Below, piece after piece: positions 2,807 to 64,000 of a stretch of DNA of 64,000 nt. Both the position numbers and the translations under genes were made by a program. The notes under the pieces are model-generated. The model searched no databases. It was not told the DNA's origin and worked only from the letters and a program-made list of their open reading frames with translations. How positions within the stretch are numbered: position 1 is the first letter of the stretch; every line of letters begins with the position of its first letter. The stretch is from an uncultured Actinomycetaceae bacterium (lineage in GTDB: Bacteria > Actinomycetota > Actinomycetes > Actinomycetales > Actinomycetaceae), in assembly GCA_902464405.1 (NCBI GenBank), contig CABQJD010000001.1, forward strand, positions 22,408 through 86,407, written 5' to 3'.

Positions 2807-3895
2807 TCATCTCCGAGGCGCTGATCCTGTGCTCTCCCCGATACGGAGTACGGGTGCGATCACATCGTGCTGAACTGTACCTTTTCCTTCTAAAATACCA
2901 AAGAGAATAGTGCAGCTGCGCTCAACGAGCGTCTCCACAGATTGCACAATAGTTGTGATAGATGGCGAGGTGTAGCGGCTAAAAGCGAGTCCATCGTATC
3001 CCGTCACGCTCACATCTGCAGGCACAGATATACCATGTTCAATAAGAGCTCGCTGAGCACCGATCGCTAAAACGTCGCTCATAGTGATAAGAGCGCTAAA
3101 GTATTTGCGCTGCTGAAGTAAACGCGTCGCAATCTCATAACCATATTCAAAAGAATACGGGCTGAGAGAGACTTCTCCATTAAGAATAAGATCTGGATCC
3201 CATTCAATTCCACGCGCCTGAAATGCTCGCTCTAATCCTCCCAAACGGATAGCACCTACGGAACGGTCTGCCGCATCCGAGCCAATCACAGCAAAATTCT
3301 CGTGCCCCAAATCGATGAGATGATCGAGCAAAAGTTCCATACCAGCCACGTCATCAACAGTCACCGACGAATACATATCGCGTTGAGAATCGTCCAATGT
3401 AGAAATAGTGCATAGCACAAAAGGCACAGGAATATCTGCGAGAGGAGCTTCCTCATGCCGATAACGACCGCCCAGAAAAATAATGCCCGCTGGTTTGCTC
3501 ACTGAACACGTGCGCATAGCTAGTTCAACTTCATCTTCTCCGTGCGCGACCCGCACAAGCGTCATCGAATAGCCATGCTGGCGAATTACTGATTCTAACG
3601 GAGTGAGAAACGCTAAGAAAAAAGGATTATCAGGCCCTTTCATCAGCACAGCTATTGATGCCGATGCTACCGAACGCAGACTCTGAGCGTGAGGATTGGG
3701 CGAATAATTGAGCCTTTGAGCTGCGGATAATACCTTTTGGCGAGTCTTTTCAGAAACTCCGGGAGAATTATTCAACGCCCGGGAAGCGGTGCCAACTCCC
3801 ACACCGCATTCGCGAGCGATATCGTGGATAGTGACGGCGGTGGCAAGACCTCTAGAAGAGCTACTTTCACCCTTTCCATATGATGTACCTGCCAT
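2807..3895 (-). CDS. LacI-family transcriptional regulator
   Basis: TIHDIARECGVGVGTASRALN HTH, VPADVSVTGYD; AGGAGG RBS before ATG 3895. Confidence 0.93.
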   Translation of the reverse strand: MAGTSYGKGESSSSRGLATAVTIHDIARECGVGVGTASRALNNSPGVSEKTRQKVLSAAQRLNYSPNPHAQSLRSVASASIAVLMKGPDNPFFLAFLTPLESVIRQHGYSMTLVRVAHGEDEVELAMRTCSVSKPAGIIFLGGRYRHEEAPLADIPVPFVLCTISTLDDSQRDMYSSVTVDDVAGMELLLDHLIDLGHENFAVIGSDAADRSVGAIRLGGLERAFQARGIEWDPDLILNGEVSLSPYSFEYGYEIATRLLQQRKYFSALITMSDVLAIGAQRALIEHGISVPADVSVTGYDGLAFSRYTSPSITTIVQSVETLVERSCTILFGILEGKGTVQHDVIAPVLRIGESTGSAPRR

Positions 3896-3949
3896 CGCGC
3901 CGCACCTCCTTCTTAACAACACAGCATTACTGCTGCGATGCACGCGAGC

Positions 3950-4795
3950 TTAGCCTTTAACAGCCCCTGCTACAACGCCTTTAATGATGTATTTCTGCAT
4001 TGAAATATAGAACACGACAATCGGCACAATTGCCAAAACGAGCATTGCCATCATCGCCCCCATATCACGGTTGCCATTAGACCCCACGAGCATTTGGATA
4101 ACCACAGGAATCGTCTTATATTCCGTGGAAAGCCCAATTGTGAGATATGGCAAAAGATAGTCGTTCCACACCCACATAGCATTGAGAATTGCCACAGTGA
4201 TAGCTGTCGGCTTGAGCATCGGAAATACTACGAGGAAGTAGTTTCGTATCGGTCCGCAACCATCAATCAGTGACGCTTCTTCAATTTCGAGGGGTATCGA
4301 TTTTACGAATCCAGCAAACATAAAGACGCTCAAACCAGCACCAAACCCGAGATAGAGCACCACAATTCCCCACGGAGTATTGAGGTGTAGAATATCGGAA
4401 ATTTTCACGGTTGGAAACATCACCATCTGGAAAGGAATCACCATGGAAAAGACGAAGAGATAGTAGAGCGCGCTCGTCCACCACGTTTTCACACGAGTGA
4501 TGTAGTACGCCGTCATCGCACAGAAGAAGACGATCACAGCCACAGATAGAATCGTAATGAAAAAGCTCCAGACGATTGCCATAAAGAATCCAGAGAGAGC
4601 TAGACCTGTGGCATAGTTTTCGATTCCGACCCACATCTCACCGAGTGGGAGAGCAAAAGGATCTGATGCGATAGAGAACTTCGCCTTAAACGAGTTCATC
4701 ACGATGAAGAGAATAGGCCCTACAAAGACTATTGTGAGGAATACCAGCACAGCATAAAGCAGTACTTTACCCACTTTTGAACGAGGAGCGCTCAT
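3950..4795 (-). CDS. Carbohydrate ABC transporter permease
   Basis: EEASLIDG EAA loop, WNDYLLP, ends AGAVKG. Confidence 0.93.
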   Translation of the reverse strand: MSAPRSKVGKVLLYAVLVFLTIVFVGPILFIVMNSFKAKFSIASDPFALPLGEMWVGIENYATGLALSGFFMAIVWSFFITILSVAVIVFFCAMTAYYITRVKTWWTSALYYLFVFSMVIPFQMVMFPTVKISDILHLNTPWGIVVLYLGFGAGLSVFMFAGFVKSIPLEIEEASLIDGCGPIRNYFLVVFPMLKPTAITVAILNAMWVWNDYLLPYLTIGLSTEYKTIPVVIQMLVGSNGNRDMGAMMAMLVLAIVPIVVFYISMQKYIIKGVVAGAVKG

Positions 4796-5637
4796 GCCTC
4801 CACCTCCTTGCTTCGCGTTGATCGCAATTGCACCATTGCAATCACCACCACAACCACAACGAATATCACAGCTTTAGCCTGCCCAACGCCTTCTTCTCCG
4901 ATACGAGAGAACATCGTATTGACGATGTTGAGTGCAACCATCTCAGTTTGATCGAGTGGAGCACCATTTGTGAGAGCAAGGTTTTGATCGTAGAGCTTAA
5001 ATGAGCTGGAAAGGGTAAGGAAGAGGCAGATCGTGACTGATGGCATCACCATTGGTATCGTCACGTGCCGCAAGACCGTCCAACGCCCTGCGCCATCAAT
5101 TTCTGCCGCTTCAATGAGTTCGGGTGGCACATTTTGCAAGCCAGCTATATAAATAATCATCATATACCCAACCTGCTGCCAGTTGATGAGCATAATCATG
5201 CCGATATAACCATATTTCCAATCGGCAATAATCGTGGTCTGATAGTGAACGAGCACAGCGTTGATCATCACTTGCCAGGTGTAGCCCAAGACGATTCCGC
5301 CAATGAGATTCGGCATGAAAAATACTGTGCGGAAGAAGTTCGTGCCGCGAAGTTTCTGCGTAAGAACCCACGCAATTGCGAACGAAAAGATATTAACTGT
5401 GACGATTGAGACGATCACAATCAATGCTGTGAAACCAAAACTACCGACGAAGCCTGAACGCTCCTTAAATGCCTCTTGGTAATTAGCAAGCCCCACCCAT
5501 GTGGCATCTGTGACCGTGGTGAACTCGCAGAACGACAGTATAAAGCCCATCACGAACGGCACGAGAAACGCAATTGCGAATGCAAGCAATGTCGGTAGCA
5601 CAAAAAGCGGGAAATATTTTTTTAATGATCTTTGCAT
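4792..5637 (-). CDS. Carbohydrate ABC transporter permease
   Basis: WVGLANY, EAAEIDGA EAA loop; start at MQRSLKK. Confidence 0.92.
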   Translation of the reverse strand: MQRSLKKYFPLFVLPTLLAFAIAFLVPFVMGFILSFCEFTTVTDATWVGLANYQEAFKERSGFVGSFGFTALIVIVSIVTVNIFSFAIAWVLTQKLRGTNFFRTVFFMPNLIGGIVLGYTWQVMINAVLVHYQTTIIADWKYGYIGMIMLINWQQVGYMMIIYIAGLQNVPPELIEAAEIDGAGRWTVLRHVTIPMVMPSVTICLFLTLSSSFKLYDQNLALTNGAPLDQTEMVALNIVNTMFSRIGEEGVGQAKAVIFVVVVVVIAMVQLRSTRSKEVEA

Positions 5638-5743
5638 AGTGCGCGATCCCCTCAAAAATGCTAATGGCTGATAGATAAGCTGTTGGGTTCGCACTGATCT
5701 CACTCGAGGGCGAAGCAGCGCGAACCCAACAGGTTTCTAATGC

Positions 5744-7075
5744 CTAGGCGCCTTTTTCAGCAGCCCAATTCTTAATCCAGCTTGCTTTCACATCGTCCCA
5801 GCTCATATTGCCAGAAGCATATTGAGCTAATGATTGCCCAAGATCTTCCTTAAACTTCTGAGATGGGAAAGTAGTAAATACCCAAGTGACGGTGTACTTA
5901 TCGGTATCAGCTATATATGAAGCAATTTCCTTTGCCAACGGATCAGCAGGAATATCGGCATCGGTGTAGTTATTGAACGGAGCAATGAAGCCTAGATCAT
6001 TGACCACGTGCTTCTTTCCAGCTTCACCAAGGAAGAGCCAGTTCACGAAATCAATCGTAGCTTTCTGATCTGCCTCAGAGGCTTTTGCATTGATAGCCAT
6101 AAAGGCCTCAGTGCCAACATTCAATCCCTGCTTTTCTTCGCCTTTAACACCCGTATAGATCGGAAGGAATTTGATATTTTCTTCTTTGACGGTGTTGCCC
6201 TGCACATCTTTAACCTGACTCCATGCCCAGTTGCCGTTTTGAACCATTGCAGCCTTGCCCATCGCAAATTCAGCCATCGAATCGGTGACGGTCTTTGATG
6301 GTGCCAGCGTAGGAGCAACTGTGGAATTATTCAGATAGAGATCGAAGATATTCTTGTAGTTCTCGCTGTATTTCAACGTGATTTCTTTTTCGTCAGTCAC
6401 GTTTGCATCGCGATATTCATAGAACATCGGTACATCGGCGAGGTGCGTCTGCCAGCGCCAGTCTTCACCAGTTGCGAGAGAGGTCGAAGCAAAAACGCCA
6501 TCGATGCCAAGATCAGCTTTCTTTGCCTGCATATCCTCAGCAACTTCCTTGAGCTTAGCGAAATTGTTGATTTCACTCATCGATGAAGCCTTAGCCCCAC
6601 TCATCGCGAAGTATTTATCAAAAATTTCCTGGTTGTAGATGATGCCATATCCTTCTACCGCCATAGGAACGCCATAAACTTTCCCATCTTCACCTTTAAG
6701 CGCAAGTGACGGATCTTTTAATGCCTTCGCAAAATCAGAGTCTGAAATATCCAGAGCGTATTTATTCCAGCTTGCCAAGCCAACTGGACCGTTAATCTGG
6801 AAGAGTGTCGGAGCTTCGCTCTTAGAAATTTCACTCTTCAAGGTTTGCTCATAGGTACCCGACGCAGCCGTCACGACTTTTACCTCAACACCAGTTTCTT
6901 TGGTGTATTCTGCAGCAACTTTCTTAAAAACTTCTTCTTGTTCAGGCTTCCAGTTGAGGAAATAAACGGAACCCTTATCGTCTGCCTTACTTCCGCTCTC
7001 CCCTGAGCATGCTGCAAGACCAGCCAGAGCCATACCTGCAACCATCGTTGCAGCAATGAGCTTCTTCACCTTCAT
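5744..7075 (-). CDS. Sugar ABC transporter substrate-binding lipoprotein
   Basis: Lipobox LAAC, SBP family 1 features; GGAGG RBS before ATG 7075. Confidence 0.92.
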   Translation of the reverse strand: MKVKKLIAATMVAGMALAGLAACSGESGSKADDKGSVYFLNWKPEQEEVFKKVAAEYTKETGVEVKVVTAASGTYEQTLKSEISKSEAPTLFQINGPVGLASWNKYALDISDSDFAKALKDPSLALKGEDGKVYGVPMAVEGYGIIYNQEIFDKYFAMSGAKASSMSEINNFAKLKEVAEDMQAKKADLGIDGVFASTSLATGEDWRWQTHLADVPMFYEYRDANVTDEKEITLKYSENYKNIFDLYLNNSTVAPTLAPSKTVTDSMAEFAMGKAAMVQNGNWAWSQVKDVQGNTVKEENIKFLPIYTGVKGEEKQGLNVGTEAFMAINAKASEADQKATIDFVNWLFLGEAGKKHVVNDLGFIAPFNNYTDADIPADPLAKEIASYIADTDKYTVTWVFTTFPSQKFKEDLGQSLAQYASGNMSWDDVKASWIKNWAAEKGA

Positions 7076-61702: not shown

Positions 61703-61723
61703 AAGTATGAAATGAGGTTGTTT

Positions 61724-61912
61724 ATGTCGATAGCTCATAGCAAGACCAAGACTAAAAATAAGAAACTACTGCAAATTTATATAGAGCCAAATCTGCATAA
61801 AGCGTTGGGACAATACTGCTTGGATAAAGATACAAAAAACGCACCTGTAGTAAGGGAGATATTAGCTCGATTTCTTGAAAGTGAAGGATATTATAAACGA
61901 GGTGACAAATAA
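61724..61912 (+). CDS. Small ribbon-helix-helix-like protein
   Basis: LQIYIEPNLHKAL...VVREILARFL pattern; GAGG RBS; TAATG overlap with MTase start. Confidence 0.6.
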   Translation: MSIAHSKTKTKNKKLLQIYIEPNLHKALGQYCLDKDTKNAPVVREILARFLESEGYYKRGDK

Positions 61913-63477
61913 TGGCTGATAATTCCAGTTTAGGTGCTGCTAGAAACGCTAAAAATGACGAATTTTATACACAATATAGCGATATAGAAGCCGAGATGAA
62001 TGCCTATATTGAATATAACCCTGAAGTATTCAAAGATAAAACTATTCTTCTACCCTGTGATGATCCAGAATGGTCAAACTTTACTAAATATTTTGCCTCA
62101 AATTTCACAAGACTTGGTATAAAAAAGCTTATTTCAACCTCCTATGCTCAAGGAGCAGCAAATAAACAGCCCACACTATTTGAACTGATGTCGCCTTTGT
62201 ATAATCCACAGCAACATGACACACACGGGAAACTTTTCACGTTAACTCGTGATACAGATGGCAATGGCACAGTTGATACTGACGACATTGAATTTACAGG
62301 ATATCTTGAAGGCGATGGCGATTTCAGAAGTAGCGAAGTAAAGAAACTCCGTGACGAGGCGGATATTGTTATTACAAATCCACCTTTTTCACTCTTTAGA
62401 GAATTTCTAGCGTGGATCTTAGAAGCCGATAAACAGTTTGTGATTTTAGGCAACATGAACGCTATAACGTATAAAGAAGTTTTTCCTTATTTACAAGATA
62501 ATGCTATATGGCTGGGATATAAGTCATTAAATCAAGATATGTATTTTAACGTGACGGATGAGTATAAGAATTGGCTTACTCAAAATAAAAAAGAAGGATC
62601 TGCTTACAAGATAGTAAATGGAATTGTTATGGGAAGATTAGCATCGGCGTGTTGGTTTACTAACGTTGACCACGGAAAGCGTCACGAGAATCTGATACTT
62701 GACACAATGGAGCATAATCTTAAATTCAACAAAAAATTGAAGAAAAAGCTTGAAAAAGAATACGGCAAGCTCGAGTATCCTCACTACGACAACTATGATG
62801 CTATTGAAGTTCCGTTTACAGAATGCATTCCATCAGATTATGAAGCAGCTATGGGAGTCCCTATCACATTTCTTGATAAATGGAATCCAAAACAGTTTGA
62901 AGTGATAGGCGCTGATTTTGAGCTTGCGAAACCAGAACCATTACCCGATGGAAAAACAGGCACGGGACGATTCTACGTGAGAGAGAAAGAGAGTACGGCG
63001 TTTGTACTCGCGCTTGGTCATACGGAGGAAGAAATGACACAAGCATTGCTCTCTATGGGTGTTCCAATTAGTCAAATGCAATGGATATCTGGCGTTATGG
63101 GTGTGCCTATTACATTTATGGATAAATATAATCCCGATCAGTTCGATATCGTAGCGTTTAGAAAAGGCGAAGATGGCAAAGACCTAGTCTTCACGAGAGA
63201 GAGAGAGAGAGAGTACAACCGTACTTTCGTATCCTTGTACAACGTCGATTCCGGGGATGATAAAGAACGCCGAAGGAAAGATAAATGGGCATCCTACTTA
63301 CGCGAGAATAACAATCACCCGCAAATAGAGCCTGTAGATTTATTTCATCCGCTCTGCATTACTAGCAGAGCGAAAGGTACGTTAAATGGAACTATTAAGG
63401 GCAAAGAAACATATCGCAGAGTTTTAATTAAGTTGAAAACAGAGGCAGCTAGTTATGAAAACAACGCTTATAACTGA
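61912..63477 (+). CDS. Adenine-specific DNA methyltransferase, EcoRI family, with repeat-switchable C-terminus
   Basis: [35 protein letters not shown], two GVPITFxDKxNP modules. Confidence 0.9.
62979..62993 (+). repeat. Interrupted GA tract (GA)4AA(GA)2G
   Basis: Direct reading. Confidence 0.85.
63195..63213 (+). repeat. (GA)9G simple sequence repeat inside the MTase gene
   Basis: Direct reading; translated as RERERE. Confidence 0.95.
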
Positions 63478-64000
63478 TTGGACAGTTGAGGATATTTGCA
63501 AAGGCTTTATCTACGATAAAAACGAAGGTAAGGGTCTATTTGGCTTAGACGGTAAGCTTATTATTCAACCCGAATATCAAAGAAACTATATTTATGGAGA
63601 TGGCAAAAAGGACGTTGCTGTTGTAGATTCTTTGCTTAAAGGATACCCACTTGGCTTAATTTACTTTGTAAAGAATAATGACGGCACGTATGAAGTGTTA
63701 GATGGACAACAGCGTATTACGTCATTTGCACGTTTTGTCAGACAATCGTGTCCTTTTGCTGTTGAACGTGATGGCAAACCAAAATATTTCGACAGTCTTG
63801 CTCAAGATGAGCAAGATTTCATTAGCAATACAAAACTTACCATTTATGTGTGTGAAGGAACACCTTCAGAAATTGAAGCATGGTTTGAAACGATCAACAT
63901 TGCCGGTGTTCCACTGGTAAAACAGGAACTACGAAATGCCGCTTATCATGGAAGCTTTGTAACGCTTGCCAAGGAAGAATTTTCAAACACTTCCAATTCT
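63455..64000 (+). CDS. DUF262 (GmrS/ParB-like) protein, probable nuclease partner; 3' truncated, absent from ORF track
   Basis: [18 protein letters not shown]...[10 protein letters not shown]...[12 protein letters not shown]...FETINIAG..L...ELRNA. Confidence 0.88.

Follow-up and report, generated by a model that had tools for sequence, protein, structure and literature searches.

A late GA repeat in an EcoRI-family DNA methyltransferase gene and its possible role as a selector among three complete C-terminal tails

Simple repeats in the methyltransferase genes of phasevarions (Type III mod and Type I hsd) are known to produce heritable and reversible heterogeneity by slipped-strand events, and the locus described here likewise carries such a repeat in a methyltransferase gene. 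However, in the phasevarions the repeat lies early in the gene and switches it ON or OFF (PMC5909438, PMC7383803), while here no frame would be OFF. A closer likeness is found in the C-terminal phase variation of Helicobacter canadensis (Snyder et al. 2010), where repeats near the 3' end alter the C-terminus while expression continues, and where three-frame tails were tabulated (PMC2823697). There the repeats are homopolymers and the tails are mostly a few to ~20 residues, with neither conservation nor a structural role shown, whereas here each frame holds a conserved cassette with a terminal strand, selection appears on a hidden frame, and the design is conserved across phyla. In the H. pylori Type IIG system JHP1272 / HP1353-1354 (Krebes et al. 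2014) a late second repeat decides on an extra C-terminal recognition domain, and the switch changes the methylated motif (GGWTAA versus GGWCNA; PMC3936762). That system has two states (short and long), a homopolymer and a fused nuclease-methyltransferase of another family, while the present one has three complete alternatives in overlapping frames, a dinucleotide tract and a separate nuclease. Finally, Type I hsdS shufflons also hold several recognition modules per locus, choose among them stochastically and keep the nuclease and catalytic parts constant, but they rely on a recombinase, inverted repeats and side-by-side modules (PMC7394358), where overlapping frames and replication slippage would suffice here. 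The preliminary description of our locus had said that no description of such an arrangement was known. In the literature searched, neither a three-frame tail selector nor an example from the EcoRI family turned up, but the claim of novelty needs to be softened because of the precedents in PMC2823697 and PMC3936762.

The window is the whole stretch of DNA that was analysed, 64,000 nucleotides from an uncultured Actinomycetaceae bacterium. The repeat and the parts of the gene around it are laid out as follows.

61912 to 63477, plus strand: gene of an EcoRI-family N6-adenine DNA methyltransferase (predicted), 521 aa with isoform A in frame now; NPPF at residues 156-159
63097 to 63194, plus strand: C-terminal module 2, predicted first strand of the terminal hairpin; in repeat-free relatives (L033, P0158, P0196, P0232) FRKGxDGKDLxxxGKxPYFRIIIRRK
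63195 to 63213, plus strand: (GA)9G, putative slipped-strand tract, (RE)n in every frame, predicted turn preceding the last beta strand
63213 to 63260, plus strand: tail B, 15 codons from 63213 and a stop (63258-60), reached by one GA fewer
63212 to 63328, plus strand: tail C, 38 codons from 63212 and a stop (63326-28), reached by one GA more
63214 to 63477, plus strand: tail A, 87 codons and a stop (63475-77), the current frame in the window

The product of the open reading frame belongs to the family described by Pfam PF13651 (EcoRI_methylase; E 1.3e-129, 432.9 bits against a cut-off of 26.4). It is also called by PADLOC as MTase_II (E 1.3e-98), and N156, P157, P158 and F159 are invariant in alignments A1-A3. 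The sequence GAGAGAGAGAGAGAGAGAG at 63195-63213, which is (GA)9G, is the only GA run of at least 5 units in the 64-kb window, four other runs having 4 units. It begins at codon 428 of 521, and the products of the alternative frames would be 449 and 472 aa, so that this is a late repeat that would alter the C-terminus without ending expression, as in C-terminal phase variation in the sense of PMC2823697. Tail A consists of a charged linker (63214-63327) that overlaps tails B and C, followed by a unique part whose final 23 bases overlap the nuclease gene downstream. All three frames behind the tract are closed by a terminal strand motif, Y/F-x-R-[ILVM]-x-[ILVM]; the tract, the stops and the three motif strings are exactly as the preliminary description gave them.

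This coincidence was compared with what the same DNA yields elsewhere. Among 428 upstream codon positions of the same reading frame, both alternative frames end in [YF]xR[ILVM]x[ILVM] only at the 3 positions directly before the tract and at 0 of the 425 others, and the median alternative-frame runs in this control are 11 and 5 codons. Across the 127,996 six-frame residues of the window the motif is found 45 times. After 20,000 shuffles of 63214-63480, all frames were open for at least 14 codons in 576, and none of these 576 had the motif in all three. Chance is excluded as the origin of the three motif-ending frames.

The preliminary description had given the motif as the usual terminus of EcoRI-family methyltransferases, and this proved correct: 99 of 115 family representatives have it within their final 25 residues, and the alignment of tails A and C reaches the end of PF13651. 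Natural isoforms with tail C (P0052) and tail A (P0005) cover positions 2-345 of the 345 of this profile, and a B isoform (P0034) covers positions 2-306. Tail B is the native end of the repeat-free relatives listed above. The isolated tail pieces (32, 46 and 87 aa), which are too short for this purpose, matched no Pfam family, the only hit being a chance one to DUF4074 at E 0.13. The invariant motif arginine in alignment A2 was also considered as independent evidence and was rejected, given that those sequences had been chosen for the motif.

Structural models add a second view of the tails. The AlphaFold2 model of the C isoform P0052 (pLDDT 87.4, pTM 0.86) has its terminal strands at residues 370-376, 379-382 and 385-389; the block 381-390, the last hairpin, has a pLDDT of 91, and residues 348-363 are below 50. 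Compared with methyltransferase cores the model reaches a Z of ~10, as expected of a Rossmann-type methyltransferase fold. The catalytic domain of M.TaqI (chain residues 21-241) aligns with model residues 18-334 (Z 9.5, rmsd 3.1, 154 aligned), and therefore the tails would start where that class has its recognition domain. A Foldseek search of the PDB gave no match at E <= 0.001, and a PDB sequence search gave 0 matches at E <= 1. The window's own 521-aa protein, modeled with 55 close homologues, reached a pLDDT of only 56.6, falling below 50 past residue 290, and that model is unusable.

The preliminary description had proposed that tract length selects among the three C-termini, and had suggested looking at whether homologous loci stay open in all frames, whether the GA length differs across strains and whether the tails align to family ends. 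The alignments above and the related loci support the proposal on each of these points. The tract is present in 27 of 28 loci that have the module 2 anchor motif; L001 was left out of the 27-locus tallies owing to an assembly frameshift in this motif, and its three tails are intact. In 24 of the 27 tract loci (26 distinct DNAs) all three tails end in the motif, and in the other three (L104, L109, L112) one or more tails are lost. Of the 27 loci, 14 are currently in frame C, 7 in frame A and 6 in frame B. Perfect GA runs of 5-15 units occur in 23 related loci and the run is interrupted in two (L108 and L115). The frame tracks the tract length modulo 3 exactly in both sequence contexts, and in that of the window a remainder of 0 gives A, 1 gives C and 2 gives B, which places the window in state A. 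As in phasevarions, then, there is a hypermutable simple repeat inside coding sequence, (GA)9 here and 5-15 units in relatives, with near-identical alleles that differ.

All three frames are also found as natural proteins. Among the best 120 homologous proteins tail A closes 58, tail B 18 and tail C 19, the remaining 25 ending otherwise, and RE runs of several lengths occur within each tail class. Database proteins that have the RE run and end in tail B number 17. Different tails can follow the same upstream sequence: five groups of proteins that are identical over 346 pre-tract residues include both A and B tails, and A/C pairs show 1-3 differences over 339-346 pre-tract residues. At the DNA level, L094 and L096 have 600-nt flanks that are 100% and 98.5% identical, and their 8 and 10 units lead to B and C, respectively. 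Four sequencing runs compared with the locus yielded contigs of distant relatives, none of which crosses 63187-63220. The same design, with cassettes swapped, is found in Bifidobacteriaceae, Mobiluncus and Saccharibacteria and on many metagenome contigs from gut, rumen and vagina.

Evidence that a frame matters when it is not in use comes from the 114-nt overlap of tails C and A, for which 12 distinct sequences gave 66 pairs. Identity is 0.81 when the overlap is read in frame C and 0.65 in frame A, with C above A in 63 of the 66 pairs, and the variable sites number 13, 9 and 25 of 38 at the three frame-C codon positions. This pattern of substitution shows purifying selection on the hidden frame C, and lends further support to the proposed selection by tract length. 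Some 115 bases would then be translated productively in two frames, under measurable selection, with the third frame also in use over the first 45 of them. Triple overlapping coding of this kind is rare in bacteria.

Our preferred reading, which we consider probable, is that the length of (GA)n determines, in a heritable and reversible way, which of three complete methyltransferase isoforms is made, and does not act as an ON/OFF switch. The last element of the enzyme would be a beta hairpin whose final strand, Y/F-x-R-I/L/V-x-I/V with basic residues, is near-universal in the family, and the turn of this hairpin, (RE)n, would be encoded by the tract. As a dinucleotide repeat of this kind gives RE/ER whatever the frame, a slip by one unit would leave the upstream protein unchanged and move only the frame downstream. 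Units would be gained or lost by slipped-strand mispairing in replication, and the ribosome would then enter a different downstream frame, where it would meet one of three stacked cassettes, one per frame and each with its own final strand. Cassette B would provide the short native end, cassette C ~25 residues more with a new hairpin, and cassette A a charged linker, which overlies B and C, together with a third cassette. The choice of isoform would thus need no recombinase. We infer that all three isoforms fold and methylate and that they differ functionally.

A second tract, interrupted in this gene, lies upstream.

62851 to 62979, plus strand: C-terminal module 1, ending ...GTGRFYV at the first tract; relatives P0088-P0091 terminate just after it with ...RRLYSRL[VI]I..K and a stop
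62979 to 62993, plus strand: first GA tract, interrupted, GAGAGAGAAAGAGAG, which departs from a perfect run by one G to A change
62993 to 63037, plus strand: fourth tail, hidden in the +1 frame behind tract 1, stop at 63035-37, with YSRLVI at 63005

The hidden fourth tail corresponds to the end of the real proteins P0088-P0091, and at the site of the first tract relatives P0023, P0042, P0045 and P0090 have RFYV(RE)n of varying length. In relatives the upstream tract would work in the same way, and translation would either stop at a short end or continue into module 2. In the window the tract is locked in the read-through frame by the G to A change.

The gene downstream has to be considered as well, as does the one upstream.

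63455 to 64000, plus strand: partner nuclease gene, starting within the window, 388 aa in the full genome, GmrSD_N (DUF262) and HNH

The nuclease has matches to GmrSD_N (3.3e-21) and HNH (5.7e-8) and to REase_II in PADLOC (2.9e-84), and a GAGG stands 9 bases ahead of its ATG. Another 94 loci, all related, have a homologous nuclease downstream, and the adjacency of MTase_II and REase_II is that of Type II neighbours. Together the gene of the EcoRI-family m6A methyltransferase and that of the DUF262-HNH nuclease behind it would form a restriction-modification-like module of two genes. A 66-aa open reading frame upstream (61712-61912) has no match in Pfam, PADLOC or NCBIfam and no tblastn match in any related locus, and by these comparisons it is outside the conserved system.

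The nuclease is very conserved and does not co-vary with the methyltransferase tails. Between the window and L003 the nucleases are 93% identical and the A tails differ, and the C and A tails of L095, L110 and L111 differ as well, at a nuclease identity of 95-98%. This is hard to reconcile with a change of specificity, unless the nuclease takes its target from the methyltransferase. The conservation of the nuclease and its lack of co-variation count in favour of an explanation in which the three tails are equivalent back-ups and the repeat is a tolerated by-product of an expandable RE loop, so that nothing is switched at all; a working end would be kept in every frame because loss of the methyltransferase beside a nuclease would be lethal. 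Two more observations suit this explanation, namely that the same structural strand closes every frame and that the length of the in-frame RE run varies freely. Despite this we regard it as unlikely. A single point change is enough to freeze a tract, as seen for tract 1 of the window and for L108 and L115, and still perfect tracts of 5-15 units persist across lineages with just 50-80% protein identity. The tails are also not minimal, since C and A have 25-85 extra residues with conserved elements of their own, these elements are exchanged between lineages as cassettes, and in the related loci compared no gene has the same cassette twice.

Ordinary ON/OFF phase variation, with only frame B active and the other two dead, seems very improbable to us, even though B is the ancestral end and ON/OFF switching is the usual action of repeats in methyltransferase genes (PMC5909438). 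A frameshift here would bring no premature stop with loss of the enzyme, as every frame has a complete family terminus, and the terminal motif is kept in 50 of the 54 out-of-frame tails of the 27 tract loci. Frames held to be dead would neither be expected to show the purifying selection seen on frame C nor to yield A and C isoforms that align to the full Pfam profile. Additionally, a methyltransferase that is OFF next to an intact nuclease should be counter-selected, yet 21 of the 27 loci are in A or C. Least credible of all is a stack of relic frames left by successive 3' cassette replacements, with neutral or misassembled tract lengths, for while cassette exchange is clear in the family and repeats can be miscounted in metagenome assemblies, relics would gather stops and in 25 of 27 loci tail A runs for 74-101 codons without one, substitutions have a periodicity that matches the hidden frame C, and tract lengths differ in isolate genomes too, each length fitting an intact frame.

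If, as in our preferred reading, the tract selects among isoforms, the most likely functional difference is that the swapped segment tunes DNA target recognition, to which we would give somewhat less than an even chance. It is suggested because the segment sits at the position of the recognition domain in the gamma class and is exchanged as a cassette across the family. In repeat-free pairs the nuclease is 85-92% and the methyltransferase core 70-91% identical, and the C-terminal segments are only 16-24% identical. Matches to the methyltransferase from plasmids and phages mostly end near residue 333. The family is common on plasmids. The variable segment is nearly absent in family members P0207 and P0165, and therefore the main DNA-reading part is probably elsewhere and the tails would at most tune it. 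Otherwise the isoforms may differ in their coupling to the nuclease. A predicted complex of the methyltransferase-nuclease pair of L002 scored 0.55 against 0.00 for the best of 3 controls, with runs agreeing in at least 48% of contacts and a partner pLDDT of at least 81. Of 157 solved complexes 116 reach the mark used for such scores, as do 2 of 215 mismatched pairs; only 18 of the 157 reach it with a score of 0.60 or less, and both of the mismatches do. The L002 prediction gives weak support to a complex of the two proteins.

More speculative, and in our view rather doubtful, is an extension by analogy to a two-component system, in which the C-terminal cassette of the methyltransferase would set or tune the target for methylation and cutting alike and the GA tracts would make up a recombinase-free specificity shufflon. 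A single gene would then store three overlapping recognition cassettes, each in its own frame, and at least four if the first tract is live too, and replication slippage would deal one cassette to each cell lineage. Type I, Type III and Type IIG systems can be named as analogues for a target shared in this way. The truncated HsdS of NgoAV (PMC9577141) can be set beside the hsdS shufflons as a further system for comparison.

These findings would mean that a simple repeat can serve as a selector with three positions instead of an on/off switch. There is a practical side for annotation, as such genes are now called as proteins of three lengths and resemble frameshift errors. If the isoforms differ in their target, the methylome and the restriction barrier would vary three ways without a recombinase, which would be relevant to phage defence, to gene flow within the microbiota of vagina and gut, and to the difficulty of transforming such bacteria.

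The preliminary description held that the length of a GA repeat chooses one of three methyltransferase C-termini without a recombinase. This repeat is the only GA run of more than four units in the 64-kb window, and its setting is as follows.

61712-61912, directly upstream of the methyltransferase: 66-aa ORF, its stop overlapping the methyltransferase ATG
61912-63477, + strand: EcoRI-family N6-adenine DNA methyltransferase ORF (Pfam PF13651, E 1.3e-129; PADLOC MTase_II)
62851-62979, + strand: module 1, ending ...GTGRFYV
62979-62993, + strand: first GA tract, imperfect through a single G to A substitution (GAGAGAGAAAGAGAG)
Stop 63035-37, + strand: hidden fourth tail, intact, in the +1 frame behind the first tract
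63195-63213, + strand: (GA)9G tract, from codon 428 of the 521-codon ORF
Stop 63258-60, + strand: tail B, 15 codons, downstream codon boundary 63213 after loss of one GA
Stop 63326-28, + strand: tail C, 38 codons, downstream codon boundary 63212 after gain of one GA
Stop 63475-77, + strand: tail A, the frame in use, 87 codons including YRRVLIKLK
Start 63455, + strand: partner nuclease gene, 388 aa, with GAGG nine bases 5' of its ATG

The three frame readings first reported behind the tract match the sequence exactly, and the motif they share, [YF]xR[ILVM]x[ILVM], is indeed the usual family terminus: of 115 representatives (those with the NPPF/Y and GVP motifs), 99 have it in their last 25 residues and the remaining 16 mostly slightly further inside. 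Among the 428 upstream codon positions of the ORF, just 3, all immediately before the tract, have both alternative frames ending in the motif, and in 20,000 shuffles of the tail region the three frames were never all open and motif-bearing at once.

Locus DNA was taken from species-representative genomes (best 80 of 182 relatives) and metagenome contigs (best 80 of 215). The module with the 13-residue signature was found in 28 loci including the window, 27 of which (26 distinct DNAs) carry the tract; the repeat-free one, L033, has the plain end ...DLCIKGKCPYFRIIIRKKA. The motif is present on the in-frame tail of 26 of the 27 tract loci, on 50 of the 54 out-of-frame tails, and on all three tails in 24 of the 27, so homologous loci do largely keep all frames. 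The exceptions are L104, which has a stop in tail A, L109, with one motif-less frame, and L112, where every tail is degenerate. All frames are in use, C being the commonest (14 loci), followed by A (7) and B (6). The length of the tract varies across relatives, from 5 to 15 units in the 23 loci with a perfect run (five, seven and nine units in 4 loci each, six, eight and ten in 3 each, 11 and 15 in 1 each); the run is interrupted in L108 and L115. The frame in use tracks length modulo 3 whether the upstream context is ACG-AGA... or ACT-AGA.... At the protein level the best 120 of 7,999 relatives, some of them from Gardnerella, Fannyhessea and Bifidobacteriaceae, comprise 58 A-type, 18 B, 19 C and 25 other tails, and the peptide encoded by the tract reads RERE, RERERE or RERERERE with A and C and RERER or RERERER with B.

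Comparison of near-identical alleles suggests that the tract alters faster than the remaining gene. Within each of five database protein groups that are identical at 346/346 pre-tract residues, tails A and B both occur and the RE run has two to four lengths, and A/C-tailed protein pairs show 1-3 differences in 339-346 pre-tract residues. Loci L094 and L096 share 100% and 98.5% identity in their two 600-nt flanks, and their tracts have 8 and 10 units, giving frames B and C. Seen through these alleles, the tract looks like a hypermutable contingency repeat.

For the commonest cassette type, selection was compared over the 114 nt common to tails C and A, using 12 distinct sequences (66 pairs). 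The two frames have amino-acid identities of 0.81 (C) and 0.65 (A), with C higher in 63 of the 66 pairs. Variable sites number 13, 9 and 25 of 38 at frame-C codon positions 1, 2 and 3, so it is frame C that the third-position periodicity fits, even though no more than about half of the loci use this frame. Frame A is a charged, low-complexity linker within the overlap, its conserved cassette lying further downstream where A stands alone, and the QPYFRILV of tail B is near-invariant in all loci. These patterns indicate that the hidden frames are under selection. Other lineages carry different C/A cassettes, for example ...GLFNNPKDTMVNGKSKYARITI, ...WPPQMFVDGQKKFFRILI and ...CQKTYHRLFI. One cassette type occupies frame C in L105 and L114 and frame A in L106 and L110, which argues that cassettes are shuffled while a proper end is kept in every frame. 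The claim that tract length selects among three C-termini is thus upheld by the conserved tails, the use of all frames, the variable tract and the signs of selection; together these are strong comparative evidence for a conserved, selected, repeat-driven selector of three complete methyltransferase ends.

The tails also align with family C-termini. Natural C (P0052) and A (P0005) isoforms cover positions 2-345 of the 345 in the PF13651 profile, and the short B isoform P0034 covers positions 2-306. Repeat-free relatives (P0158, P0196, P0232 and L033) end FRKGxDGKDLxxxGKxPYFRIIIRRK, which indicates that tail B is the native end of the module and that the repeat lies within the turn joining strands DLVFT and PYFRILV. 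The last 22 residues of tail C resemble other natural family ends, such as HGLIKDKDGTINGKPTYVRIVI (L045) and P0223. An AlphaFold2 model of P0052, built with 85 diverse sequences (pLDDT 87.4, pTM 0.86), has terminal strands at 370-376, 379-382 and 385-389, with pLDDT 91 for block 381-390 and below 50 for residues 348-363. Its residues 18-334 superpose on the M.TaqI catalytic domain (chain residues 21-241) with Z 9.5 and rmsd 3.1 Å over 154 residues, followed by MmeI, DrdV, M.BseCI and BpuSI at Z 8.1-8.8, all of these scores being moderately above the quoted background of the comparison tool and no more. The available text of 10.1101/2023.12.13.571470 places the EcoRI_methylase group nearest the M.TaqI-like topology, with a C-terminal recognition domain or a separate specificity subunit. 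By the M.TaqI alignment, the swapped segment would start where such a topology has its recognition domain or binds that subunit.

The window gene has two C-terminal modules, and the tract behind module 1 amounts to a further, nested selector. Proteins P0088-P0091 end like the hidden fourth tail, and relatives have RFYV(RE)n runs that are still live and differ in length, which suggests that their first tract picks either a short enzyme or read-through to the second selector. In the window the in-frame reading continues into module 2 and the third frame yields a 25-residue reading that lacks the motif; the broken tract is frozen in read-through, with the fourth end hidden behind it.

The partner nuclease has GmrSD_N (DUF262) and HNH domains and gives a full-length match to PADLOC REase_II (E 2.9e-84); a homologous gene lies 3' of the methyltransferase in 94 related loci. 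The best 120 of 8,000 scored homologues (nuclease at L002 5301-6464) are all 386-388 aa with at least 77% identity. This unusually uniform nuclease spans records of Clostridia, Bacteroidales and Actinomycetota, and the adjoining methyltransferase end is hypervariable. The nucleases of the window and L003 are 93% identical, yet their A cassettes differ. In repeat-free pairs identity is 85-92% for the nuclease, 70-91% for the methyltransferase core and 16-24% for the C-terminal segment. By these alignments the nuclease does not co-vary with the tails. In the metagenome loci L095, L110 and L111 the gene downstream of the three-frame methyltransferase encodes a 406-aa protein with only about 35% identity to the usual nuclease, so the selector seems to travel with more than one partner type; these downstream proteins are 95-98% identical, yet the C and A cassettes differ. 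Structure prediction gives weak support to a methyltransferase-nuclease complex in L002: the pair scored 0.55 (best of 3 controls 0.00), within a range up to 0.60 that holds 18 of 157 solved complexes and both mismatched pairs that passed, the mark being reached by 116 of the 157 and by 2 of 215 mismatches. Its runs had at least 48% contact agreement and a partner pLDDT of at least 81.

The pattern seen here, in which a cassette-like segment varies beside a constant nuclease and core, is the hallmark of the specificity modules of Type I, III and IIG systems; for a classical Type II pair it would be dangerous. One of two things follows: the segment plays no part in setting specificity, or the nuclease's target depends on the methyltransferase. 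The segment is almost absent in some family members (P0207, P0165), so it could at most tune recognition. Tuning of this kind is exemplified by H. pylori JHP1272, whose extra C-terminal recognition domain turns GGWTAA into GGWCNA according to the available text of PMC3936762. That the isoforms differ in DNA target is a serious possibility, but one we lean slightly against.

The module moves horizontally, judging by its hosts (Alloscardovia, Mobiluncus porci and two Saccharibacteria among those named), its absence from all 15 further species of the window's genus that were searched, and a G+C of 0.35-0.43 in the locus compared with about 0.48-0.53 upstream. EcoRI-family members occur in 98 plasmid and 12 phage records. 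In L092, the window's own genome, positions 3122-6090 lie 3' of the nuclease, beyond the end of the window, and carry a Fic/Doc fragment with a Phd-like antitoxin, a MerR/TipAS regulator and a RelB/ParE pair; at G+C 0.35-0.43 versus about 0.5 upstream, this stretch looks like a small acquired island. The 66-aa ORF has no Pfam, PADLOC or NCBIfam match and no tblastn match in any related locus and thus does not belong to the conserved system; local regulation is a possible role for it.

The literature searched, which lacked most subscription journals and REBASE, described no stack of cassettes in three frames, and to that extent the novelty first proposed stands; it does not extend to the principle, which has precedents. 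Repeat-driven change of a C-terminus was proposed for H. canadensis as 'C-terminal phase variation' (PMC2823697), and H. pylori Type IIG enzymes were shown to change specificity through a repeat acting on a C-terminal domain (PMC3936762). The same search found no phase variation in the EcoRI_methylase family, EcoRI_methylase/PF13651 being met in chlorovirus work only, and nothing on a three-frame arrangement in work on phase-variable methyltransferases of Gardnerella, for which the only repeat named in review PMC11868660 is that of the NanH3 sialidase. The wider context consists of ON/OFF phasevarions (PMC5909438, PMC7383803) and recombinase-driven hsdS shufflons (PMC7394358), as far as the available text of these sources goes. 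The window gene differs from classical phasevarions in that its layout does not fit an ON/OFF switch, and the selector is best filed with C-terminal phase variation and repeat-driven specificity switching, as a new form.

Other repeats also chain modules in the family, namely TDRQ (P0206), SDQIR (P0107) and TQHNT (P0266); these three proteins, P0127 and P0151 have two or three C-terminal modules joined by differing peptide repeats. Repeat-linked stacking of modules may be general in EcoRI-family methyltransferases and not tied to GA. Separately, L007, L027 and L030 (two genome-collection MAG contigs and one Faecousia MAG) have two EcoRI-family C-termini about 1.1 kb apart, which are tandem paralogues with different variable ends.
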